A stretch of DNA of 20,000 nt from an uncultured virus (IMG/VR IMGVR_UViG_3300045020_000151). Its lineage: Duplodnaviria > Heunggongvirae > Uroviricota > Caudoviricetes. A program made the translations under genes and the position numbers. The notes under the pieces were generated by a model. That model made no database searches, was not told the DNA's origin, and was given only the letters and a program-made list of their open reading frames with translations. Below, piece after piece: positions 2,623 through 13,843 of the stretch; within the stretch, counting starts at the first letter, position 1; the number at the start of each line of letters is the position of its first letter. Location: the IMG/VR virus record IMGVR_UViG_3300045020_000151, one strand, 5' to 3'.

Positions 2623-3475
2623 CGTTTTCGAGGTTCTGGCGATTGAGGAAGTTCCTCTCGGCCGAAGGCTGCAACGTTTGGGTATTCACGTTCAGCGGGA
2701 GGTCGTATTCGATGTCACCCTTCGGAATCTCGTGAAGACCCAATTCCCACCGAACGGGAGTCCGAAGACGTTCAGTTGGTGTGGCTGAAACCACCTTCCA
2801 GCGTCGGTTTTCTGACTCCACAAGTATGTCGTTCACAGACACAGGTGGGAAGTAGATCATGCGCCCGGCCGTATCGATGGCCTGGCTCTGTCCAAGGGGA
2901 GTGGGCTTCAAATGCTGCCCGACTGGATCGATCTGAATCCAGACCTCGACGGGAGACATGTAGCCTCCCAAGAAGCCGGTGCCAAAGCAGGCCGCATGGT
3001 TGGACCTCGTCTTCCTCTGGAGGTTCACATCCCAGCAGGTGCACCGAGGACCAAAGGTCCTTCGTGGGAAGAGCCAGCAACGCCGACCAATGAACTCCCG
3101 GAAGAGGACGTCTTCTTCATGGTAGATGGCCGCCGCAATGAGATCAGGCTCTGGAATGCCTGAGGCGGCGGGGCCGAAGATCTTCTCGTCCCCGGTGGGA
3201 ACGTGGTGAACCTTGATTTGGTAGTAGTACTGCCGCCACTTGTGAAGAAGAGAGACCGAGACGTCTCGAATGGCGTACTGGTCGACGAGAGGACCGGCGA
3301 GTTGCTCGTAGGGCCCCTCCGGTGAATCCCCTGAGCGCAGAACGAAGAACTGGTAGTCGAAGATCTCATGCTTCTCTTCGTCGTTCCTCGGACCGAAGAC
3401 GGAGTCGATCTCCCAGAAGATGTCCAGGCGATCGAGGTCGAAGGAACGGACTGTGAGCTTCGAGATGTTGATCAC
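2561..3475 (-). CDS. Putative head-completion/neck protein with Cys-rich motif
   Basis: 304 aa; RCTCW...HAACFGTGFLGGY resembles the CxC...CxxCxGTG motif of large-myophage neck proteins; coupled to the upstream gene by overlap. Confidence 0.6.
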   Translation of the reverse strand: MINISKLTVRSFDLDRLDIFWEIDSVFGPRNDEEKHEIFDYQFFVLRSGDSPEGPYEQLAGPLVDQYAIRDVSVSLLHKWRQYYYQIKVHHVPTGDEKIFGPAASGIPEPDLIAAAIYHEEDVLFREFIGRRCWLFPRRTFGPRCTCWDVNLQRKTRSNHAACFGTGFLGGYMSPVEVWIQIDPVGQHLKPTPLGQSQAIDTAGRMIYFPPVSVNDILVESENRRWKVVSATPTERLRTPVRWELGLHEIPKGDIEYDLPLNVNTQTLQPSAERNFLNRQNLENDGEDYDDIIAAFGHPRGAIR

Positions 3476-4047
3476 GGGAAGTTGCGCTGGACCAGGTACG
3501 TGGCGAGGTTAACTCCCGTGTACGTGGCCGCGATGGAGTACTGACCAATCTTGTTGGTGTCGTAGGTCCCTGGACTGGCAGCCTGGGCTGCAGCGGCATC
3601 TGCAGCCGTGCTGTAGATGCGAAGCCGGCCAGATGTCAGATTGTTGTTCCCGTCGAAGCTGGTGATGTCGAGGACCGAGTTCTCGTGTAGAAGTCCCAGG
3701 CTCCTGAAGAGAAGAACTGCCACGTCGTCATTGAGGTACCCAACGATCTGGAACCTCATGATGGTGAAGTCGGTGACAGGTGAAGATGTGCTGTTGAACG
3801 AGAGGACCAAGACCCCTAGCTCGTTCAAGATGCCGGCCGGGAGCCCGGCCATGTAGACACCTGGAGCATTGACCGAGTCCACCTCGGTCCAACTCGTCAG
3901 GGTGACGGTGACCTCCGAAGCGTCGTTCTTGATGGCCTTGACGACGAGATGGGCGGTGGTGACCCCAGTCTGACGGGTGACGCCGTCAGAGGCGAACATC
4001 ATCACTGCGATGTTGGCGGCCGTGCTCTGTTTGAGGAGGTCAGCCAT
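3472..4047 (-). CDS. Putative virion structural protein
   Basis: 191 aa, Thr/Val/Ser-rich beta-type sequence in the structural operon. Confidence 0.7.
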   Translation of the reverse strand: MADLLKQSTAANIAVMMFASDGVTRQTGVTTAHLVVKAIKNDASEVTVTLTSWTEVDSVNAPGVYMAGLPAGILNELGVLVLSFNSTSSPVTDFTIMRFQIVGYLNDDVAVLLFRSLGLLHENSVLDITSFDGNNNLTSGRLRIYSTAADAAAAQAASPGTYDTNKIGQYSIAATYTGVNLATYLVQRNFP

Positions 4048-4052
4048 ACACC

Positions 4053-4493
4053 CTACCCATCAAATCCAGCGTTGAAGTCCAGTCTCCTCCCAGCCGAGAT
4101 GGATGAGAAGGTGTCACTGACGGGTCCGTTGACCAAGTTGTTGAGGGTCGCTGCAGTGCCAGCAGCAACGTCGATTCGATAGCTGCCAGCCTGGAGTCCA
4201 CCGCTGAGGTGAAGAGTGACTCCCTGCGTTCCGTCAAAGGTCACCGACGAAACTGTCAGCGCCGGCTGGCTGCTCAAAGAGGTGATGGTGTAGTTGGCAG
4301 CCGTCGTGAGGGCGGACAGGTTCTCAAGAGCGAAGTTCCACTTCAAGAGGACCTGTGAACCACCAGCCTCTGATGCGACAAAGAGGAGGGCTGGAGGGAA
4401 TGCCTCCATCGTCAATCTGCGAACACGCTGAGCGACTGGAAGGAACATCGGATCCAGTGGCGGCGTGAAGAAGAATCGGGTGACTGCCGGCAC
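4053..4493 (-). CDS. Putative Ig-like virion protein
   Basis: 146 aa, GTG start; TAANYTI...VTLHL pattern recalls bacterial Ig-like domains (inference). Confidence 0.6.
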   Translation of the reverse strand: MPAVTRFFFTPPLDPMFLPVAQRVRRLTMEAFPPALLFVASEAGGSQVLLKWNFALENLSALTTAANYTITSLSSQPALTVSSVTFDGTQGVTLHLSGGLQAGSYRIDVAAGTAATLNNLVNGPVSDTFSSISAGRRLDFNAGFDG

Positions 4494-4502
4494 GGCTTCT
4501 CC

Positions 4503-5561
4503 TTACAGAGAGGGAGACGTATTGCATGGGAACCAGCAGGTGCCCATGACGACGGAGGTGACTGGAGGTGTAACAGGTGGCGAACTGGGTGGATCCGTCT
4601 TTCCGTTCGATGCGTTTGTCCCGTCGATTCCTGCAGCCTTGATGTCTACGATCCTCCCACGCCGTGTTCTGTGTGAGTTCGAGTTGGAGGTGTTGCTGAA
4701 GACAGCGATTGGCCAATCGGGAATGGTACCGTCTTGACCATCACCACTGTTTGCGAAGCCTCCAGCCATGGGCCCGATGGAAGAGTTGTAGGGCTGGTAT
4801 GGACCGTAACTCGAAGCGGTCGTCCCGTCCGAACCAGAGTTATCTGTGTAGCGAGCTTGCCAAATGGAGGTGCCGAAGAAGGCTGAATTGGTGGGCACTC
4901 CTGGAGCCCCGTTGTTGTATTCCATGTAGAGTCCGTACGGGAAAACGTCTCCGGAATACGCCTGGGCCATCATGGGGAGATACGACATCCACTGAGCCTG
5001 CCCCTGTCCGGACTTCTGCGAGAACATGTAGTGATCCCCAATGGTGCTGAGGACCCCGCTGAAGGCGAAGGTGGTCGAAGATCCATCTGTGATTTGCAGG
5101 TTGGTGAATGGGTTGCAAGCATCGGTGGTGGTCGGATCGTTGGTGCTGGAGCCGCCTGTCGGGGCACTCTTGCTGAATCTGACGTTGATGAAGTTGAAGC
5201 CACCAGTACCCGACATGCTGACGAGTAAGTAGCAACCAGGTCCGAAACCGCTTGAGGGACTCTTGTAGCAAATCCAAGAGTGAGCCGTTCCGTTCGTTGC
5301 GCTCACGTACTTCGAGAAGTTGAACGTGCTGCCCCAACGATCGACAGCATCCATTGCTCCGGTGACCCCATCACTGGAACCGGCAACAGTCCAAGCTCCA
5401 GTTGGAGAGCCGATGGCGACGTTGTTGATGTCGGTGAACGAGAGCAGCGCCAACATCAACTGATGGTGGAAGAAGAGAAGAGACGCTGCCAGACGGTTGA
5501 CCGTCGTGTTGTCCGCCGGGGCAACGTTCCAGGCGTGCTGGTAGACCCGTTCGAAGGCCAT
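4503..5561 (-). CDS. Putative virion structural protein
   Basis: 352 aa, Ser/Thr/Gly/aromatic-rich, GGGAG SD, tightly packed in the operon. Confidence 0.75.
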   Translation of the reverse strand: MAFERVYQHAWNVAPADNTTVNRLAASLLFFHHQLMLALLSFTDINNVAIGSPTGAWTVAGSSDGVTGAMDAVDRWGSTFNFSKYVSATNGTAHSWICYKSPSSGFGPGCYLLVSMSGTGGFNFINVRFSKSAPTGGSSTNDPTTTDACNPFTNLQITDGSSTTFAFSGVLSTIGDHYMFSQKSGQGQAQWMSYLPMMAQAYSGDVFPYGLYMEYNNGAPGVPTNSAFFGTSIWQARYTDNSGSDGTTASSYGPYQPYNSSIGPMAGGFANSGDGQDGTIPDWPIAVFSNTSNSNSHRTRRGRIVDIKAAGIDGTNASNGKTDPPSSPPVTPPVTSVVMGTCWFPCNTSPSL

Positions 5562-5591
5562 TGCTTCACTCCCGAATCAGAGACTGTGGTC

Positions 5592-6308
5592 CTACTTGCC
5601 AACTGCAGGGGCCATGCGGCCCACGAGCTTTTGAGCGCCTCCCACGAGAGCCGGAGCGGCTGCACCAGCGACTCCGCCGGCGGCAGCTCCACGGAGAGCG
5701 CCCCCGAGGCGGCTGCCGGATTGCCCGGTCATCGGATTGATGCCCGGCTTCTGGGCGGCGCCACCGACTGCTCCGATGGCTGCTCCGCCTGCAGCACGCC
5801 CCAACATGGAGGAACCTGCCATCGCCTTGCCTGCGCTCTGGAGACCCTTGGTGACGGTGGGCATCGCCTTGCCGAGGAGACCAGAGACGCCTGGAGGAAG
5901 AGCGAGAGACTTCTTCTCCTTGCCCATGTTCTGGAGCCAGCGTTCTGAGTGTCGGCCAGCCTGGACTCCACCGAGGTATCCCGCTCCGAGACCGTACTTC
6001 CCGGAGTGTTTGGCAACGTGTCCTTTGACCGCTCCGGCTGCCCCCTTGAGAGCGTCCATCTTCGAACCTGCGGTCTTGGCGAAGTCACGGGCGAGGTCTC
6101 GGCCCCACTGATCCGCAAGAGCGAACTTCTCTTCGGCCGACATCTTCACCATGTCGCTCTTCTTCTCCTTCTTCGGAGAAGCTTCCTTCTTGATGAGCTC
6201 TTCGAGCTCTTCGATGGGAAGATCCTTGAAGGCGGAGGCGAGTTTCGTCTTCTTCGAATCCACCGAGCTCAAGGCCTCGGCGAAGGTCATCTCGGCGGTC
6301 TTCTCCAC
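5592..6308 (-). CDS. Lys/Ala/Gly-rich protein with repeated K-x-A motifs (possible internal head protein)
   Basis: 238 aa, GTG start with GGAGG SD; motifs KTA, KLA, KEA; Gly-zipper-like C-terminus. Confidence 0.7.
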   Translation of the reverse strand: MEKTAEMTFAEALSSVDSKKTKLASAFKDLPIEELEELIKKEASPKKEKKSDMVKMSAEEKFALADQWGRDLARDFAKTAGSKMDALKGAAGAVKGHVAKHSGKYGLGAGYLGGVQAGRHSERWLQNMGKEKKSLALPPGVSGLLGKAMPTVTKGLQSAGKAMAGSSMLGRAAGGAAIGAVGGAAQKPGINPMTGQSGSRLGGALRGAAAGGVAGAAAPALVGGAQKLVGRMAPAVGK

Positions 6309-6317
6309 GGGTTCCTC

Positions 6318-6785
6318 CTACTTCAAGGCCTTCAGAATCTTGAGGCCAGCCATCGCCCCTGCAGGGGCGACCATGAGTCCTGCTGCGGTTGGGTGCTTGG
6401 CCAGGAGATCCGCAACACCCGAGACTCCAGGAGCCGCAGCGTGCATGAGCCCCTTTGCCAAGCCGGGCTCCACTCCCGTCTGCTCTTGAGTCTGCTTTGC
6501 GGCGGCTGCGGAGTCGGTGAGCTTCCGACCGACTCTCTGTTCAGCCGAGGGCTCACCGTTCTTCCCAGGCTTGGCCATGGCTCGGCCGAGAAGTCCTGCT
6601 CCCAACGCTCCAACTCCGCCGGCGATGATCGATCCCTTGTTCCGACTGGCTGCCTCGCCGGCGTGTCGAACGAAGTTCTTCGCCATGCCCTTGGCCATGT
6701 CGAGTTTCGGACCAGCCGTCTTCATCTTCTTGAGGAAGGCCCTGCCCGCCGCCTTCTCGATGATGTCGTTCAGAGATTCGGACAT
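6318..6785 (-). CDS. Lys/Ala/Gly-rich protein with K-x-A motifs
   Basis: 155 aa, first gene of the left minus-strand block; EKAA and AFLKKMKTA motifs. Confidence 0.7.
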   Translation of the reverse strand: MSESLNDIIEKAAGRAFLKKMKTAGPKLDMAKGMAKNFVRHAGEAASRNKGSIIAGGVGALGAGLLGRAMAKPGKNGEPSAEQRVGRKLTDSAAAAKQTQEQTGVEPGLAKGLMHAAAPGVSGVADLLAKHPTAAGLMVAPAGAMAGLKILKALK

Positions 6786-6843
6786 GGATGCTCAAGGGTA
6801 GAGCGGGTTTGGGGTCTGTAGGAAGCAATTCGTCAGGAACCGC

Positions 6844-6873
6844 TTGACAGTTTCGTCTCGGCCTTGAGATGCT
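6844..6873 (+). promoter_or_regulatory. Putative sigma70-type promoter of the tRNA array
   Basis: Perfect TTGACA at 6844-6849, 18-nt spacer, TG-N-GATGCT as a weak extended -10. Confidence 0.5.
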
Positions 6874-6883
6874 GGAGGCCTCG

Positions 6884-7033
6884 ATGAAGACCGTGTCGAA
6901 AACGCAGAGAGGGCAAGCCGGATCGCCAGTGGCGACCGCAGGCGTAGCCTATTTGCGCGATTCGTTCGGTTGCCGAGCCTCAAAGCCGCAGATTCACCTC
7001 AGCCTGAATACCGAAGAGCGCCCGCCCGGCTAG
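6884..7033 (+). CDS. Leader peptide, 49 aa (MKTVSKTQRG...EERPPG)
   Basis: GGAGG SD 5 nt before ATG; its last codons overlap the antiterminator arm; below the ORF-track size cut-off. Confidence 0.65.
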   Translation: MKTVSKTQRGQAGSPVATAGVAYLRDSFGCRASKPQIHLSLNTEERPPG

Positions 7034-7070
7034 GGTCCCGAGAAGAAGCTTTCTCCCACCAAGCCGGGCG
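7023..7070 (+). promoter_or_regulatory. Antiterminator hairpin
   Basis: CGCCCGGCT (7023-7031) is the exact complement of AGCCGGGCG (7062-7070); inner helices GGT/ACC and GAGAAG/CTTTCTC. Confidence 0.65.
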
Positions 7071-7101
7071 ACCCAAAGAGGTCTCCCGGCTTTTCGCGTT
7101 T
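7061..7101 (+). terminator. Intrinsic terminator (attenuator)
   Basis: AAGCCGGG-C-GACC / GGTC-T-CCCGGCTT hairpin followed by TTCGCGTTT. Confidence 0.7.
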
Positions 7102-7141
7102 CAGGAGGTCTGCGTCTCCAACCCAACATGCCGTTCTGAAT

Positions 7142-7209
7142 AGGCCGTCCTCCAGCGAGGAACCTGAACTCCAAATCCAGGTAGCAGGGATCAACACCTT
7201 GACGGCCTG
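7142..7209 (+). tRNA. tRNA-Trp(CCA), atypical (minimal D arm, T loop ATCAACA)
   Basis: Acceptor AGGCCGT/ACGGCCT, G73, loop CT-CCA-AA, T stem CAGGG/CCTTG. Confidence 0.7.
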
Positions 7210-7274
7210 CTTCTGCAGACGTTCTCTGACATCCTGAATAGCTCGATGAGCCCGATGAAGGATCGGGCTCACAT

Positions 7275-7347
7275 GCCCCGCTAGCTCATCTGGTAGAGCG
7301 CCTGTTTCGTAAACAGGAGGTGATCGGTTCAAGTCCGATGTGGGGCT
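7275..7347 (+). tRNA. tRNA-Thr(CGT)
   Basis: Cloverleaf; CCTGT-TT-CGT-AA-ACAGG. Confidence 0.95.
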
Positions 7348-7423
7348 CTTGTTGCTGTAGGCGCCGATAGCCTCCGGTGCGTAACCACTCGCCCCTCGCT
7401 TGAGTCGCCGATCAGCAGCATCT

Positions 7424-7496
7424 GCGGATGTAGCTCAGTTGGTAGAGCATCTGCTTGCCAAGCAGAAGGTCGTCGGTCCGAATCCGATCATCCGCT
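7424..7496 (+). tRNA. tRNA-Gly(GCC)
   Basis: Cloverleaf; TCTGC-TT-GCC-AA-GCAGA; T loop TCCGAAT. Confidence 0.93.
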
Positions 7497-7582
7497 CAGC
7501 AGCGTGCAGGCTCCATAGCGGTGTTCTCGCCGTTCAGGGCCTGGAGAAGAGGGCGCCCTTCCCTCACGCACGGGGCAAGCAT

Positions 7583-7665
7583 GGTGGAGTAGTTCAAGCG
7601 GCAAAGACATCAGACTGTAAATCTGACGCCTCCGGGCTTCGAAGGTTCGAGTCCTTCCTCCACCA
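7583..7665 (+). tRNA. tRNA-Tyr(GTA)
   Basis: Cloverleaf with long variable arm; TCAGA-CT-GTA-AA-TCTGA. Confidence 0.95.
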
Positions 7666-7669
7666 AGTT

Positions 7670-7740
7670 GGGTCCTTAGTTCAATGGTAGAACCATCGCC
7701 TCTTAAGCGACCAATGAGAGTTCGATTCTCTCAGGACCCA
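7670..7740 (+). tRNA. tRNA-Lys(CTT)
   Basis: Cloverleaf; loop CT-CTT-AA. Confidence 0.92.
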
Positions 7741-7790
7741 CTGAAAGGAGAAGTCATGCGATTGAAACAGGACGGCAGTGACAAACGAAT

Positions 7791-7862
7791 GCCTCCGTAG
7801 CTCAAAGGTAGAGCACTCGCCTTTTAAGCGAAGGGTTGCAGGTTCGAGTCCTGTCGGGGGTA
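7791..7862 (+). tRNA. tRNA-Lys(TTT)
   Basis: Cloverleaf; loop CT-TTT-AA. Confidence 0.92.
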
Positions 7863-7865
7863 CTC

Positions 7866-7937
7866 GCGGCCATAGCTCAGTGGTAGAGCGCTTGGTTCCC
7901 AACCAAGAAGTCGAGGGTTCAAGTCCCTCTGGCCGCT
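7866..7937 (+). tRNA. tRNA-Gly(CCC)
   Basis: Cloverleaf; CTTGG-TT-CCC-AA-CCAAG. Confidence 0.95.
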
Positions 7938-7940
7938 CTT

Positions 7941-8012
7941 GCGGAAGTAGCTCAGAGGTAGAGCGTCTGCCTTCCAAGCAGAATGTCGTGGGTTCAATTC
8001 CCATCTTCCGCT
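7941..8012 (+). tRNA. tRNA-Gly(TCC)
   Basis: Cloverleaf; TCTGC-CT-TCC-AA-GCAGA. Confidence 0.95.
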
Positions 8013-8017
8013 CTTGA

Positions 8018-8071
8018 AGTCTTCCCGGGGCCCAATGGCGGCCTGCAGGGAGTCACGCTCGTGAACCGAGC
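8018..8071 (+). ncRNA. Unidentified structured RNA motif, copy 1
   Basis: AGTCTTCC...GGGAGTCAC followed by hairpin GCTCG-TGAAC-CGAGC. Confidence 0.6.
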
Positions 8072-8073
8072 TT

Positions 8074-8144
8074 TCGCGTGTAGCTCAATTGGTAGAGCAC
8101 CGGCCTAGAAGCCGGCTGTGCTGGTTCGAGTCCGGCCATGCGGT
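8074..8144 (+). tRNA. tRNA-like gene with 6-nt anticodon loop (CTAGAA), identity undetermined
   Basis: Intact acceptor, D and T arms; anticodon arm CCGGC-CTAGAA-GCCGG. Confidence 0.75.
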
Positions 8145-8151
8145 CTTTCGT

Positions 8152-8274
8152 AGTCTTCCTCTACCCTGTGGGGCCCCCATCAGCACCCAATCTCGATTGG
8201 ATGTTGTTGGGGCCTCTTCAGGGATCGACAGATCGGAATGCCACCGATTCGGGAGTCACACCCGTGAACCGGGT
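8152..8274 (+). ncRNA. Unidentified structured RNA motif, copy 2 (larger insert)
   Basis: AGTCTTCC...GGGAGTCAC followed by ACCCG-TGAAC-CGGGT; the insert folds into two hairpins. Confidence 0.6.
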
Positions 8275-8275
8275 A

Positions 8276-8348
8276 TGGGTCATAGCTCAGTCTGGTAGAG
8301 CGCCGGCCGAGATGCCGGAGGTCACAGGTTCAAATCCTGTTTGCCCAG
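8276..8348 (+). tRNA. tRNA-like gene with 6-nt anticodon loop (CGAGAT), identity undetermined
   Basis: Canonical D and T arms; anticodon arm CCGGC-CGAGAT-GCCGG. Confidence 0.75.
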
Positions 8349-8368
8349 CTTGCAGTCGCGGTGTCGAT

Positions 8369-8439
8369 TGAGGCGTCGTCTAACGGCAGGACGCCGGTCT
8401 TTGGAACCGGCTGTCTAGGTTCAAATCCTAGCGCCTCAG
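8369..8439 (+). tRNA. tRNA-Gln(TTG)
   Basis: Cloverleaf; CCGGT-CT-TTG-GA-ACCGG. Confidence 0.95.
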
Positions 8440-8442
8440 CAT

Positions 8443-8513
8443 TGGGGAATCGTCTAATGGTAGGACTCCAGGCTCTGACCCTGGCTATCTAGGTCCGAAT
8501 CCTAGTTCCCCAG
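8443..8513 (+). tRNA. tRNA-Gln(CTG)
   Basis: Cloverleaf; CCAGG-CT-CTG-AC-CCTGG; T loop TCCGAAT. Confidence 0.93.
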
Positions 8514-8516
8514 CTT

Positions 8517-8589
8517 GCCGAAGTAGCTCAATAGGTAGAGCGCCAGTTTTGTAAACTGGATGTTGCAGGTTCAATTCCTGTCTTCGGCT
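8517..8589 (+). tRNA. tRNA-Thr(TGT)
   Basis: Cloverleaf; CCAGT-TT-TGT-AA-ACTGG. Confidence 0.95.
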
Positions 8590-8606
8590 CTGAAGAGAAG
8601 AAGCAT

Positions 8607-8678
8607 TCCCCGATAGCTCAATGGCAGAGCGCCCGGCTGTTAACCGGTTGGTTGAAGGTTCGAGTCCTTCTTGGGGAG
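8607..8678 (+). tRNA. tRNA-Asn(GTT)
   Basis: Cloverleaf; loop CT-GTT-AA. Confidence 0.95.
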
Positions 8679-8681
8679 CAC

Positions 8682-8753
8682 GGCACCGTAGCCAAGTGGT
8701 AAGGCACGAGTCTGCAAAACTCACATTCGTCGGTTCGACTCCGACCGGTGCCT
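8682..8753 (+). tRNA. tRNA-Cys(GCA)
   Basis: Cloverleaf; loop CT-GCA-AA, U73. Confidence 0.95.
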
Positions 8754-8795
8754 CAACTGTCAAAGAGGTACTAACAGCTACTACTTTAGTAGAAT

Positions 8796-8867
8796 GGCCT
8801 CATCGTCTAACGGTTAGGACACGGCGTTCTCAGCGCCGTTATTGGGGTTCAAATCCCCATGAGGCTA
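8796..8867 (+). tRNA. tRNA-Glu(CTC)
   Basis: Cloverleaf; CGGCG-TT-CTC-AG-CGCCG. Confidence 0.93.
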
Positions 8868-8938
8868 CTTGCTGCGCCACCCATGAGAAGCCAAGAGTCG
8901 ATCCGACCGAGAGCCAGGGTGGGAGCGCAGCAAAACAC

Positions 8939-9010
8939 GTCCCTGTAGCTAGCGGCCCAGGCATTCTGCCTTTCAAGCAGGAGACGCGGGTTCGAATCCC
9001 GCCAGGGACA
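8939..9010 (+). tRNA. tRNA-Glu(TTC)
   Basis: Cloverleaf with weak D stem; loop CT-TTC-AA. Confidence 0.88.
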
Positions 9011-9013
9011 CAT

Positions 9014-9087
9014 CTGGGAGTAGCTCAGCCTGGTAGAGCGCTTGCCTTGGGCGCAAGAGGCCGCAGGTCCGAATCCTGTCTCCCAGA
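9014..9087 (+). tRNA. tRNA-Pro(TGG)
   Basis: Cloverleaf; CTTGC-CT-TGG-GC-GCAAG; T loop TCCGAAT. Confidence 0.93.
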
Positions 9088-9092
9088 CAGTA

Positions 9093-9166
9093 CGAGACGT
9101 AGCTCAGCTTGGTAGAGCACTTCCTTGGGGTGGAAGGGGCCGGAGGTTCGAATCCTCTCGTCTCGA
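9093..9166 (+). tRNA. tRNA-Pro(GGG)
   Basis: Cloverleaf; CTTCC-TT-GGG-GT-GGAAG. Confidence 0.95.
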
Positions 9167-9174
9167 CAGTAGAA

Positions 9175-9253
9175 GGGTCGCATGTCAGCCGTCGAAAGAC
9201 GGTCCACTCGGAAACCGAACCCTATAGTGGCCAGTCGTGAGGCTGGTGACCTG
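9175..9253 (+). ncRNA. Cloverleaf-shaped RNA with GNRA tetraloops
   Basis: Closing stem GGGTCGC/GTGACCT; arms CCGTC-GAAA-GACGG, CCACT...AGTGG, CAGTC-GTGA-GGCTG. Confidence 0.55.
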
Positions 9254-9257
9254 TCAT

Positions 9258-9331
9258 CGAGGTGTAGCGAAGCCTGGTATCGCACTTGGTTCGGGACCAA
9301 GGGATCGTGAGTTCGAATCTCACCACCTCGA
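9258..9331 (+). tRNA. tRNA-Pro(CGG)
   Basis: Cloverleaf; CTTGG-TT-CGG-GA-CCAAG. Confidence 0.95.
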
Positions 9332-9332
9332 C

Positions 9333-9404
9333 TGGCTCATAGCTCAACGGTAGAGCAAGCGCTCGATAGGCGCTGGGTTCTAGGTTCAAATCCTAGTGGG
9401 CCAA
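9333..9404 (+). tRNA. tRNA-Ile(GAT) with C33
   Basis: Cloverleaf; AGCGC-TC-GAT-AG-GCGCT. Confidence 0.85.
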
Positions 9405-9412
9405 CTCGTAAT

Positions 9413-9485
9413 GCCTAGCGTCGTCCAATTGGTCAGGACACCTGATTGTGGCTCAGGGAACCACGGTTCGAATCCGTGCCTAGGT
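9413..9485 (+). tRNA. tRNA-His(GTG) with irregular acceptor stem
   Basis: CCTGA-TT-GTG-GC-TCAGG; 5' GCCTAGCG against 3' CCTAGGT leaves one base unpaired. Confidence 0.8.
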
Positions 9486-9492
9486 GCTGTAC

Positions 9493-9566
9493 GGGTCGTG
9501 AGGAAGCTTGGTGAATCCGCCTGCCTGTCACGCAGGATCTGACCGGTTCAAATCCGGTACGGCCCG
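9493..9566 (+). tRNA. tRNA-Asp(GTC)
   Basis: Cloverleaf; CCTGC-CT-GTC-AC-GCAGG, G73; G at position 8. Confidence 0.9.
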
Positions 9567-9653
9567 CTCAAAGCAAAACGTCAGACCCTCTTGGTAGAAG
9601 GCCTCTGGACTGAGCATTTAGCTCAATCTCCAACCAACCTTGAGAGGGAAGAC

Positions 9654-10592
9654 ATGTCGAGCAAGAAGAGCACGAAGACTGGGCAGTTCGAGAAGCAACA
9701 GAACGACAACACCATCACCCGAGCCTCCGGCATCACGGTGGACTCGGCTCTGAAGTCGCTGTCGACTGCCCAGGCGGTCGTTGGGAAGACACTCGCTGGA
9801 GTGGGTGAGCAGATTCAGTCTCAGCTCCTGGAGCTGGACACGGTGACCAAGGCGGTCGAGCTCAAGAAGGACGAGCTGAAGACGATTCACGGAGTCGAGA
9901 TCGTCGCCAAGAACATCGAGGAGATGGAGGCGGAGTTCGTCTCTCGTCGAGAGCTGGCCACCGCTCACTTCCGTTCCTTCCAGGCCGAGCAGGAGACGGC
10001 TCGGTCCGACGCCAATCGCGACTTCAGCCAGTTCCTGGCGCAGCAGAAGGCCAACCGGGATCAGGCCATGGCCGATTGGGCGTACAACTTCTCCCAGGAG
10101 CAGAAGAAGGCCCGAGACGCCTTCGCCGAGGAGATGCGAGTCATCCGGAACCAGGAGCGGGATCGTTCGGAGGCTCTGTCGAAGAGCTGGGCGGCCCGGG
10201 ATGAGGAGCTCAAGAAGAACGAGGCCCTCTTCGCCGATCTCCAGAAGCAAGTCGCCGAGTTCCCCGCCAAGCTCAAGACGGAGACGGAGAAGGCAGCTTC
10301 CATCGCCGGCAACTCGGTCAAGCGCGACTACGAACACCAGTTCGAGTTGCTGAAGAAGGACTCCGAGGTTGCGGCCAAGATGTCGGCCAACACCATCGAG
10401 AGCCTCCAGACGACCATCGCGAATCAGAACAGCGTCATCACCACGCTGCAGGCCAAGCTGACCGACGCGGAGAAGAAGGTCGAGACCATCGCCACGAAGG
10501 CTCTGGATGCCGCTTCCGGCCGCCAGACCCTCGCCGAGCTGCAGAGCCTCCGGTCGGACAACGGGGCGCCGTACGCTGCTCGCAAGACGTAG
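9654..10592 (+). CDS. Long coiled-coil protein, 312 aa
   Basis: ATG at 9654 after GAGAGGGAA; E/K/A/Q-rich heptad pattern, strongly GC3-biased codons. Confidence 0.85.
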   Translation: MSSKKSTKTGQFEKQQNDNTITRASGITVDSALKSLSTAQAVVGKTLAGVGEQIQSQLLELDTVTKAVELKKDELKTIHGVEIVAKNIEEMEAEFVSRRELATAHFRSFQAEQETARSDANRDFSQFLAQQKANRDQAMADWAYNFSQEQKKARDAFAEEMRVIRNQERDRSEALSKSWAARDEELKKNEALFADLQKQVAEFPAKLKTETEKAASIAGNSVKRDYEHQFELLKKDSEVAAKMSANTIESLQTTIANQNSVITTLQAKLTDAEKKVETIATKALDAASGRQTLAELQSLRSDNGAPYAARKT

Positions 10593-12126: not shown

Positions 12127-12200
12127 GCCCCTGTAGTCCAATGGTAGGAGACGATGCGCTCAAAACGCAGACAGTAGTGGTTCGAGTCCACTCAGGGGCA
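12127..12200 (+). tRNA. tRNA-Leu(CAA), short variable loop
   Basis: Loop CT-CAA-AA; 5-nt variable region. Confidence 0.9.
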
Positions 12201-12209
12201 CTGTACAAT

Positions 12210-12283
12210 GGGCTCATGGTGAAACTGGCAAACACGGCCGACTTAAGATCGGAACATTGCAGGTTCAAATCCTGCTGGGCCCA
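12210..12283 (+). tRNA. tRNA-Leu(TAA), short variable loop
   Basis: Loop CT-TAA-GA; 5-nt variable region. Confidence 0.9.
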
Positions 12284-12300
12284 CTGGAAAGGAGGGCGTC

Positions 12301-12846
12301 ATGGAGTGTCTTGTTCTGAGTTCGAGCTTCATGCCCATGGCGAAGGTGCCCTGGCAAAGAGCAGTCACCCTCTACTTCAAGAACCTGGTGGAGGTCGTTG
12401 AGCACCATGACGCGGTGATCCACTCCGTCACGTTGGAGCTCAAGGTGCCTTCCGTTGTCCGCTTCATCAGAGGCTCCAAGCCTCGGAGGAAGGCCATCAA
12501 GTTCTCTCGTGAGAATGTCTACGCGAGGGACGCTGGGCGCTGCCAGTACTGCAGCCGTCCATGCGACAGGAGCGAGGCCACCTACGACCACGTCATCCCG
12601 AGAGCTCAGGGAGGTGGCACTCACTGGGACAACATCGTCATCGCCTGTGTCCCCTGCAACCAGAAGAAGGGCGGCAGGACTCCGGAGCAGGCAGGGATGC
12701 ACCTCAGGTCAGTTCCGGTGAAGCCGAAGAAGCTCCCGGACACGATGCGCTTCTGCATGACCTACCAAAAGGGCATGCCGCTATCGTGGAGACAGTGGCT
12801 CCAGGTTGATTTGCCGTACTGGCACGGAGCTCTGGACGAGAAGTAG
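12301..12846 (+). CDS. HNH endonuclease (McrA-like)
   Basis: RD..RCQYC...TYDHVIPRAQGG.THWDNIVIAC..CNQKKG motif; SD AAAGGAGG. Confidence 0.92.
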   Translation: MECLVLSSSFMPMAKVPWQRAVTLYFKNLVEVVEHHDAVIHSVTLELKVPSVVRFIRGSKPRRKAIKFSRENVYARDAGRCQYCSRPCDRSEATYDHVIPRAQGGGTHWDNIVIACVPCNQKKGGRTPEQAGMHLRSVPVKPKKLPDTMRFCMTYQKGMPLSWRQWLQVDLPYWHGALDEK

Positions 12847-13063: not shown

Positions 13064-13152
13064 GGTGGGTGACCGGATGGCCGAGGGACTGGTCTTGAAA
13101 ACCAGCAAGGTGCTTTGTCAGCGCCTCCAGAGTTCGAATCTCTGACCTACCG
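13064..13152 (+). tRNA. tRNA-Ser(TGA)
   Basis: Long variable arm; CTGGT-CT-TGA-AA-ACCAG; G73. Confidence 0.92.
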
Positions 13153-13189
13153 CAAACGCACCCTCCACGACCTGCTAGAGTCAGTAGTC

Positions 13190-13615
13190 ATGGCTTTCAA
13201 AGATCCTGAGAGGGAGAAAGCGTACAAGAAGGACTATAGGGTAAGAAGGAAGGCCGAGCGAAGTGACTATGAACGGCAACGACGAGTGAATCCAGCTCAC
13301 CGAGCCAATTACATAGTCCAAGACTCAAGAAGTGGAGACAAGAGACATGGTCGATCAAACGATCTGACCGTGGCATTCGTAGAGAGATTGATTGCCTCTG
13401 GTTGTGCATACTGCGGAGAAACGAAGTTGCAGATGACCTTGGATAGGATTGACAACTCCATCGGCCATCTCATGACGAATGTCGTATCGGCGTGTGTCCG
13501 CTGCAATCTCATGCGTAGGGACATGCCATACGCAGCCTGGTACTCCATGCTTCCAGCGATCCGTTTCGCACGAGAGTCAGGATTGTTTGGCGAATGGCGT
13601 GGCGGTATTTGGTAA
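13190..13615 (+). CDS. HNH-family (homing-type) endonuclease, 141 aa
   Basis: CAYCG...TLDRIDNSIGH...NVVSACVRCN motif; lower GC than the flanks; ATG at 13190. Confidence 0.85.
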   Translation: MAFKDPEREKAYKKDYRVRRKAERSDYERQRRVNPAHRANYIVQDSRSGDKRHGRSNDLTVAFVERLIASGCAYCGETKLQMTLDRIDNSIGHLMTNVVSACVRCNLMRRDMPYAAWYSMLPAIRFARESGLFGEWRGGIW

Positions 13616-13617
13616 AG

Positions 13618-13689
13618 CGCACCCTCCTGGACTTGAACCAGGAACCTCCGTCGACTACCCGGCGCTCTAACCAGTTGAGCTAAGGGTGC
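13618..13689 (-). tRNA. tRNA-like gene, shortened anticodon stem (CCG-GGTAGTCGA-CGG)
   Basis: Perfect acceptor GCACCCT/AGGGTGC, canonical D and T arms; 15-nt anticodon arm. Confidence 0.75.
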
Positions 13690-13692
13690 TAG

Positions 13693-13768
13693 CGCGTCCA
13701 TCAGGATTCGAACCTGAAGCCCTCCGGGTCATTACTCCGGTCGCTCTTCCATTTGGAGCTATGGACGC
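13693..13768 (-). tRNA. tRNA-like gene with expanded anticodon loop (CCGG-AGTAATGAC-CCGG)
   Basis: Perfect acceptor GCGTCCA/TGGACGC, D stem GCTC/GAGC, T arm TCAGG-TTCGAAT-CCTGA. Confidence 0.78.
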
Positions 13769-13769
13769 A

Positions 13770-13843
13770 TGGTGGGGCAAGGGGGAATTGAACCACCCTC
13801 CATCCGGCTTTGACACCGGCTGTGCGACGTACACCATCGCCCC
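13770..13843 (-). tRNA. tRNA-like gene with 6/8-nt anticodon loop (CCGG-TGTCAAAG-CCGG), CCA encoded
   Basis: Acceptor GGGGCGA/TTGCCCC followed by ACCA; T loop TTCAATT; D loop lacks GG. Confidence 0.7.

Follow-up and report, generated by a model that had tools for sequence, protein, structure and literature searches.

An array of phage tRNA genes is commonly taken as no more than a list of genes, and the question raised by a 20,000-nucleotide (nt) stretch of viral DNA (IMG/VR record IMGVR_UViG_3300045020_000151; the window, meaning this whole stretch) is whether such an array, here from an uncultured soil phage, holds a selected structured RNA without a family. Positions 8018-8348 of the window consist of two tandem units, each of which begins with a conserved leader and continues with a tRNA gene with a 6-nt anticodon loop. 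These tRNA-like genes, to which the leader is tied, retain the complete L-shape and are unable to present a normal anticodon loop. An earlier reading of the letters by a model, made without database searches (the original prediction), had described a motif joined to a tRNA body twice in succession, and all its statements about the sequence hold. The finding is real, is accounted for by no described family and bears signs of selection, and it is best filed among the structured RNAs associated with phage tRNA genes. Our preferred interpretation, which is tentative, is that of a selected, lineage-specific module whose two parts, a structured RNA leader and a tRNA-like handle that does not decode, would be separated by tRNA-processing enzymes.

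Two tandem units share colinear blocks

Conserved blocks of 8, 4, 9 and 9 nt recur in both units at fixed spacing, and the stretches between them are dissimilar in sequence and of unequal length, with a difference of 69 nt. The segments AGUCUUCC, AAUG-N10-GGGAGUCAC and CGUGAACCG are invariant between the units, as compared with a divergence of about 30% of the background. Exact copies of AGTCTTCC are present in the window only at 8018 and 8152. On the plus strand, GGGAGTCAC is found exactly at 8048 and 8251 and nowhere else, and its single exact minus-strand copy, at 4216, is unrelated. With up to one mismatch allowed, the single words occur at chance frequency (9 found against 9.0 expected, and 16 against 22.2), and therefore it is the colinear arrangement, not the words, that constitutes the evidence. 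Hairpins of 5 base pairs (bp) with a TGAAC loop number just two on both strands of the 20 kilobases (kb), and these are located at 8057-8071 and 8260-8274.

Contigs of three soil sequencing runs were compared with the window. Those of run X1, which is possibly the source of the window, cover the whole stretch with 0 differences, those of run X3 cover 7920-8104 and 8099-8400, and those of run X4 cover 8247-8400, again with 0 differences in both cases. Since the contigs of all three runs carry identical letters, the 6-nt loops are not an assembly slip. Immediately after unit 2, on the plus strand, the trailer TTGCAGTC (8350-8357) resembles TTGAAGTC at 8014-8021; this trailer may be the start of a third, truncated repeat, which would fit an old tandem duplication with its junction at AGTC.

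The leader contains three helices

The leader is larger than the original prediction had seen and is composed of three helices, P1, H1 and H2. In P1, GUCUUCC faces GGGAGUC in a 7-position helix of which six positions are paired, with one U/U and one U.G, and its letters are identical in both units. In leader 1 (plus strand, like all features of both units), the 5' strand of P1 at 8019-8025 lies within the AGTCTTCC block (8018-8025) and pairs with 8048-8054, which together with the following AC makes up the block GGGAGUCAC (8048-8056), and the exact 9-mer is also found in leader 2 at 8251-8259. There, the 5' strand of P1 at 8153-8159 pairs with 8251-8257. The insert that had been described as variable is closed by P1, within which CUUCC pairs with GGGAG, and has a length of 22 nt in unit 1 versus 91 nt in unit 2. 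In both units this insert ends with H1, which exposes a 7-nt loop containing AAUG exactly 10 nt before GGGAGUCAC. H1 of leader 1 (8028-8044) has 5 bp and the loop CAAUGGC, with AAUG at 8034-8037, and H1 of leader 2 (8231-8249) has 6 bp and the loop AAUGCCA, with AAUG at 8237-8240; the stem sequences are unlike and the geometry is kept. An extra long hairpin is predicted at 8164-8223, in unit 2 only.

H2 begins after the AC. It is formed by GCUCG/CGAGC in leader 1 (8057-8071) and by ACCCG/CGGGU in leader 2 (8260-8274), with the loop UGAAC in both, and is separated from the tRNA-like gene by 2 nt (UU) in unit 1 and by 1 nt (A) in unit 2. The closing C-G and G-C pairs and the loop are kept, and both outer variable pairs show double changes between the units (G-C to A-U and U-A to C-G). 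The covariation claimed earlier for this stem thus amounts to two of five pairs changed on both sides and three unchanged. The patchy 100% conservation amid the roughly 30% divergence, together with these compensatory changes, supports the earlier argument that conserved structure with diverged sequence indicates selection. Because P1 and H1 make use of U.G pairs, which would be mismatches on the opposite strand, the strand that folds is the plus-strand RNA.

Fold prediction gave pair probabilities of 0.5-0.7 for P1, 0.82-0.95 for H1 and 0.97-1.0 for H2 in leader 1, and of 0.86-0.96 for P1 and 0.65-0.94 for H1 in leader 2 alone, so that the three helices are at 0.5-1.0 in the isolated leaders; in unit 1 they remain in this range when both flanking tRNAs are attached. 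Leader 2 folds with a z-score of -2.84, and 2 of 200 shuffled sequences were as good. It had also been suggested that the TCT of the motif could pair with the AGA of the anticodon loop. This is not what the folds favour, as TCT sits inside P1, where each pair is predicted at 0.6-0.96 in the leaders alone.

The tip of the extra hairpin, AUCUCG (8190-8195), is the exact complement of the anticodon loop CGAGAU (8308-8313) of tRNA-like gene 2, and unit 1 has no counterpart. A pairing of this tip with the anticodon loop was rejected as a shared feature, being confined to unit 2, as was a pairing of the H2 5' strand with tRNA positions 1-5, also seen in unit 2 only. In its permissive mitochondrial mode, ARAGORN reads leader 1 as an armless tRNA (atg), a reading that was discarded when leader 2 was read differently.

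The tRNA-like genes keep a cloverleaf around a 6-nt loop

tRNA-like gene 1 (8074-8145) and tRNA-like gene 2 (8276-8349) both form a full cloverleaf, and both lack an encoded CCA. With Rfam tRNA scores of 52.3 and 53.3 bits, respectively, they lie well above the gathering score of 29 bits of the tRNA family (RF00005), and Infernal skips one loop position in both. Gene 1 has the loop CUAGAA, a U1.G72 pair and the discriminator U, and gene 2 has the loop CGAGAU and an acceptor end with U1-A72, G2-C71, G3-C70 and the discriminator G73, an end which is Gln-like according to tRNA identity rules. The anticodon stem CCGGC/GCCGG is identical in both genes, as had been noted in the original prediction, and ARAGORN assigns a 2-base "anticodon" (ag) to each of them.

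The acceptor stems differ, as stated before: one of the seven pairs is the same, five are changed on both sides and one on one side, and among the five double-changed pairs one is an unpaired C/U in the second tRNA. In the T stem, two of five pairs are changed on both sides. All four stems are kept in both genes, with this one acceptor position of the second unpaired. The D loops (AAUUGGUA and AGUCUGGUA) and T loops (UUCGAGU and UUCAAAU) contain canonical elbow elements (GG and UUCRA), and the 15-48 pair covaries (A/U and G/C in the two copies). As stems, loops and the 15-48 pair are kept, selection appears to have acted on the L-shaped fold at a constant loop length of 6 nt.

No register of the loops provides both U33 and a purine at position 37, as in a 7-nt loop, in both copies. 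When the loops are read as C + UAG/GAG + A + A/U, the purine at 37 is kept and one of positions 32/33 is dropped. When they are read as C + U/G + AGA + A/U, the invariant AGA is kept and one copy has G at 33 and U at 37. The total length of the anticodon arm is 16 nt. Both genes agree with the canonical tRNA in their four stems, in the sequences of the D and T loops, in the 15-48 pair and in scoring above threshold, and they differ from it in having a loop of 6 instead of 7 nt, an arm of 16 instead of 17 nt and, in one copy, G instead of U as the second base of the loop.

The two bodies are 70% identical, and their closest partners in the array reach 0.72 (first gene) and 0.75 (second gene), so that the mutual likeness of the tRNA-like genes is not above their likeness to the Thr, Phe, Pro and Ile genes of the array. 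In BLAST searches, the first gene matched a tRNA-Phe with a normal 7-nt loop from Burkholderia phage BcepSaruman (87%) as well as tRNA-Trp genes of mycobacteriophages, and the second gene matched a tRNA-Val from Sinorhizobium phage Phosso (88%). The first gene has its anticodon stem and variable loop in common with the neighbouring tRNA-Gln(ttg), and both tRNA-like genes adjoin two tRNA-Gln genes. Judging from these sequences, the pair may have descended from Gln genes.

Comparison with described RNA families

The Rfam scan that the original prediction had proposed as a check left its motif as unrecognised as before: at E<=10, a search of 7940-8420 returned 7 matches, none of which accounts for the leaders. 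Two of the candidates that were rejected are mir-76 (minus strand; 20.4 bits, the gathering score being 75) and the Y RNA-like YrlA (14.6 bits against 69, E 4.1, matching the D arm alone). Transfer-messenger RNA (tmRNA) was dismissed because ARAGORN found none in the window. A T-box, which would have a UGGN bulge with N pairing to the discriminator, was rejected as well, as there was no Rfam match and leader 1 offers UGGC against the discriminator U, and leader 2 offers UGGG and UGGA where the discriminator G would need UGGC. The hammerhead core is formed by CUGANGA and GAAA around a three-way junction, and on the plus strand of 8000-8370 both elements are absent and no Rfam match was obtained.

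Among RNAs associated with phage tRNA genes, GOLLD and ROOL are large ornate RNAs beside phage tRNA arrays that measure several hundred nucleotides and have Rfam models. Like the leader, they are structured RNAs of unknown function tied to phage tRNA genes, but the leader has only 56-124 nt, and the window contains no GOLLD or ROOL match at gathering thresholds. Small RNAs derived from tRNA spacers or linked to tRNA-like structures reportedly include the 3' external transcribed spacer of an Escherichia coli tRNA operon, the stable species 1 and 2 of the phage T4 tRNA cluster and RNAs with MALAT1-mascRNA handles. In these, as in the module proposed here, a non-tRNA RNA is said to be contained in a tRNA precursor and to obtain its ends from tRNA-processing enzymes; they differ in that no likeness in sequence or structure is known and in that the handle would here be a dedicated short-loop tRNA-like gene. 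Literature searches yielded no description of 6-nt-loop phage tRNAs or of the leader motif.

Theta ribozymes, minimal relatives of the hepatitis delta virus (HDV) ribozyme, are, like the leader, small structured RNAs right beside phage tRNA genes. According to the report describing them, they are often found beside unusual (suppressor) tRNAs and are presumed to have a role in tRNA maturation, their catalytic C is the first base of J4/2 after P4 and is followed by the P2 3' strand, and their cleavage site lies within +/-5 nt of the tRNA (PMC10879173). In contrast, the leader abuts the 5' end of the downstream tRNA, H2 is followed by UU or A and not by a conserved C, no nested pseudoknot could be drawn and there is no Rfam match. 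P1 starts at 8019 and 8153 and is separated by 6 and 8 nt from the upstream discriminators at 8012 and 8144, which is outside the distance of 5 nt. The ribozyme-processed RNA considered in the original prediction thus found no backing, as no Rfam ribozyme at E<=10, no hammerhead core and no HDV-like conserved C were detected.

Search for relatives of the leader and of the short loops

The leader and the odd anticodon arm were sought with exact patterns, and diverged relatives are missed by exact words. Pattern matches were vetted for the 5-bp stem, for the leader block termed A and for neighbouring tRNAs. In IMG/VR, the first leader pattern occurred in 99 stretches, none of which had the 5-bp stem or block A after filtering, the second gave at least 116 matches with none convincing among the matches listed, the third was found in 49 stretches, one of which (L369) had the complete 5-pair stem but lacked both block A and a tRNA, and the fourth in 0 stretches. 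The 185,579 species genomes of GTDB yielded 8 stretches with at most 4 of 5 stem pairs and 0 tRNAs nearby, and a loose pattern run on part of a set of metagenome contigs gave at least 120 matches, none of them convincing among the matches listed. In five phage and viral records, a pattern allowing up to 2 mismatches was matched 4 times, as compared with 4 times in the reversed control. A spacer of the uncultured Virus Rctr197k (KX853510.1; L395) contains GTGAACCG, GGAGTCA and GGAAGAC, which stand in another order and were judged coincidental. By these scans the leader appears so far to be unique to one lineage. A lack of homologs, which the original prediction had counted against the motif, is thereby weakly indicated, since the exact-word scans found none, in two of them among the matches listed.

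The odd anticodon arm combined with its D arm gave 0 matches in IMG/VR. When any 6-nt loop on the stem CCGGC/GCCGG next to a D arm was accepted, 17 stretches were obtained, including three good viral tRNA genes on IMG/VR contigs of 9.5 kb (L396), 153 kb (L405) and 61 kb (L412), with scores of 39.9, 55.2 and 50.8 bits and the loops UUUGAU, AUUUGC and CCAAAC, respectively. One of these genes is in a small array, two have UUG in the loop, two have an encoded CCA, and in one the acceptor end is Gln-like (U1-A72/G73). In GenBank, the L405 gene is closest to a tRNA-Lys of Aeromonas phages with a normal 7-nt loop. None of AGTCTTCC, GGGAGTC, GAGTCAC and GTGAACC is present within 500 nt of the three genes on the tRNA strand. 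As far as these sequences go, short-looped tRNA genes are seen to recur in viruses, and as the search pattern fixed both stem and loop length, the three genes show the existence of such tRNAs, not their frequency.

A proposed leader RNA processed by means of a tRNA-like handle, and rival readings

In the reading that we tentatively favour, the units would be copies of one selected RNA module, read from the plus strand as part of a polycistronic phage tRNA precursor. In the leader part, P1 would close H1 (and the extra hairpin in unit 2) and H2 would follow; in the tRNA-like part, an L-shaped body with a 6-nt loop, incapable of forming a normal 7-nt anticodon loop, would serve as a handle for tRNA-processing enzymes and also as a stabilising element. 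RNase P would cleave at 1-2 nt beyond H2, and the leader would become free on its 5' side when the upstream tRNA is processed at its 3' end, so that unit 1 would release a stable RNA of about 58 nt and unit 2 one of about 128 nt, with both ends tucked in helices. This RNA might bind a protein or a second RNA by means of its invariant nucleotides (the P1 sequence, the AAUG loop and the UGAAC loop), and the handle, owing to its 6-nt loop, would stay out of translation. The reading draws on analogy with spacer-derived small RNAs, the stable RNAs of T4 and tRNA-like handles. What the window shows directly is the arrangement of the parts, conservation in patches, compensatory changes, undamaged cloverleaves and loops of 6 nt; we infer transcription, processing sites, non-decoding and any activity in trans. 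The patchy perfect conservation, the fixed spacing, the compensatory changes and the preserved cloverleaves argue for a selected module rather than decay, and the four stems, the D and T loops, the 15-48 pair and the scores of 52-53 bits indicate that the cloverleaf fold was kept after the loop became 6 nt.

Several observations weigh against this reading. The module is known from two copies in one lineage, and other long spacers of the array (41-139 nt) do not contain such a motif. Leader 1 folds no better than shuffled sequences (z-score -0.71; 50 of 200 fold as well), and when leader 2 is folded together with its tRNA, the leader helices fall to 0.2-0.7, P1 to 0.2-0.4. The three 6-nt-loop tRNAs of other viruses lack the leader, so the parts are not obligately linked in other phages. 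Finally, the anticodon arm, with 14 of 16 positions identical, is the best-conserved part, which the idea of a handle leaves unexplained, and therefore rival readings stay alive.

That the units are a functionless relic, an old tandem duplication of a spacer and a pseudo-tRNA in which the blocks were kept by chance or by patchy gene conversion, is unlikely. Such a view would suit the two copies, for which the exact-pattern scans gave no homologs, the truncated repeat start after unit 2, the decayed tRNA pieces in the spacers of the syntenic Virus Rctr197k array and the presence of GAGTC also in common T loops. However, decay should blur stems, and here all leader helices and all tRNA stems but for one pair are kept, with double changes; the blocks keep their fixed spacing between differing stretches, and conversion tracts would have homogenised the intervening H2 stem and acceptor strand. 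Slightly more doubtful is the proposal of special decoders, that is, working short-loop tRNAs for recoding or frameshifting whose maturation the leader would control. ARAGORN labels both genes "Leu|Ser", and the registers given above would cover all CUN codons in one reading (C + UAG/GAG + A + A/U) and read UCU in the other (C + U/G + AGA + A/U). In the CUN register, the wobble base and position 38 alone distinguish the two loops, just as in pairs of isoacceptors; the bodies are canonical, the second gene has the Gln-like acceptor end described above, and both stand beside two tRNA-Gln genes. Against this stand one loop without U at its second position, an array that already contains long-arm Leu(tag) and Leu(gag) and four Ser tRNAs, and literature searches in which no natural 6-nt-loop decoder was found. 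In addition, all 14 complete open reading frames (ORFs) of the window end in standard stops, with all three codons in use, CUN makes up 323 of 4618 codons and UCN codons are plentiful too. As all stops act as stops and CUN and UCN are abundant, a wholesale reassignment through short-loop tRNAs is unlikely, and the window ORFs give no sign of a changed genetic code. An equally doubtful proposal is a tRNA mimic or decoy, whose short uncleavable loop would titrate a host factor that acts on anticodon loops, e.g., an anticodon nuclease or another defence directed at tRNAs, the leader stabilising it or timing its production. The strong conservation of the anticodon arm in otherwise diverged bodies and the three further viral contigs in which this stem bears a 6-nt loop would be in line with a decoy, as would the described phage tRNAs whose altered anticodon loops evade host nucleases (PMC10264068, PMC11464382, PMC11555353). 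But the loops UUUGAU, AUUUGC and CCAAAC have nothing in common with CnAGAw, and the invariant leader is left unexplained.

The handle reading is also to be compared with readings in which leader and tRNA body act together or the leader itself is the active element. With a slightly smaller chance than the decoy, leader and short-loop tRNA body might be one folded RNA of a new class, or the leader might self-cleave and so make tRNA 5' ends without RNase P. If it were one folded RNA, P1 and a capped anticodon arm would touch each other or a common partner, the cap being a C-A or C-U closing pair around the four-base turn U/G-AGA. Very improbable is the specific case of a new-class self-cleaving ribozyme that, without RNase P, would generate either the tRNA's 5' end or the upstream tRNA's 3' end. 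Invariant-sequence helices are typical of catalytic cores, and the position against the tRNA recalls the theta ribozymes (PMC10879173), but no Rfam ribozyme at E<=10 was found, CUGANGA/GAAA is missing from the plus strand, no conserved C follows H2, P1 begins 6 and 8 nt past the upstream discriminator and the insert in P1 varies from 22 to 91 nt. A site acting at the level of DNA, either a target or boundary of an HNH endonuclease or a recombination site, has a still slimmer chance. The array contains or adjoins three HNH-type ORFs, and the pair of units stands between the similar trailers TTGAAGTC and TTGCAGTC; however, the nearest HNH gene is 4 kb off, the helices need U.G pairs, which are not available in DNA, and the compensatory changes indicate RNA. 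Slimmest of all is the chance of a 9-codon leader peptide (MAACRESRS, 8035-8064; MPPIRESHP, 8238-8267) whose translation would be coupled to the way in which the tRNA-like RNA downstream folds or is processed. ATG and TGA are in frame with identical spacing in both units, the stop falling in the H2 loop, and the sole variable base beside the 9-mer gives AGG or CGG, both of which encode Arg. On the other hand, neither ATG is preceded by a convincing ribosome-binding site, codons 2-4 and 8-9 are wholly different, the invariant 9-mer contains no synonymous third-position variation, and partners outside the ORF change so as to keep H1 and H2 paired.

If the leader is processed as proposed for the handle, the module would add a case of phages making other RNAs by means of the tRNA-processing machinery. 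If the short-loop tRNAs decode or act as decoys, they would bear on phage control of translation and on escape from tRNA-targeting defences, and if the one-folded-RNA or self-cleaving reading were true, a tRNA-embedded functional RNA or ribozyme not previously described would be at hand. Given the three other viral contigs, 6-nt-loop tRNA genes, which are normally discarded as "undetermined", merit a systematic survey.

The tRNA array and the phage that carries it

ARAGORN found 48 tRNA genes in the window, between 7275 and 14404, of which 45 are on the plus strand and 3 have an anticodon loop other than 7 nt. A scan of the whole window at Rfam gathering thresholds gave 42 matches, exclusively tRNA. 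According to ARAGORN, the array serves all amino acids but Trp, and Val(tac) is missing. The array is split by an ORF of 333 amino acids without assigned function (9591-10592) and contains two HNH endonuclease ORFs (12301-12846 and 13115-13615). Comparison of the flanking ORFs with Pfam and PHROG families identified three HNH-type endonucleases and one PHROG of unknown function, the rest having none. A scan of 6800-9700 returned 0 promoter-like and 3 terminator-like sites, none of the latter within the units.

The window sequence was present solely in soil metagenome runs among public sequencing runs, and no RNA run was listed as carrying it. Two large ORFs of the window had zero matches in a tblastn search of 50,697 GenBank phage records, and a protein-based search for relatives with the ORF regions 9591-10592 and 14552-16483 found none. 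A C1 facing A72 is a hallmark of the bacterial initiator tRNA, and since one CAT tRNA of the array has C1 opposite A72, the host is a bacterium. We read the window as a piece of a large, unsampled soil phage. Virus Rctr197k has a 30-gene tRNA array (3400-7229) with decayed tRNA pieces within its spacers, and its tRNA sequences are strongly unlike those of the window. The isoacceptor order Gln-Gln-Thr-Asn ... Phe / Ala-Val-Ala-Ala-Arg is common to both arrays, which suggests that tRNA arrays move or persist as blocks.

Some other genes of the array are unusual as well. Bacterial tRNA-Leu has a long variable arm, but two tRNAs with the Leu anticodons caa (12127-12201) and taa (12210-12284) have 75 nt and no such arm, and they score 55.9 and 59.7 bits as tRNA. 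On the minus strand, a trio at 13617-13843 comprises Thr(agt) and Ile(aat), whose wobble base is A in both cases, together with a third tRNA-like gene that has a 6-nt loop (GUCAAA, on the stem CCGGU/GCCGG); within this trio, Ile(aat) alone is above the Rfam threshold, with 40.9 bits. This third gene has an encoded CCA, which is not present in the tRNA-like genes at 8074 and 8276 or in the neighbours inspected. The stops of the 14 complete listed ORFs are TAG in 8, TGA in 4 and TAA in 2 cases, an odd preference at a G+C content of 59%.

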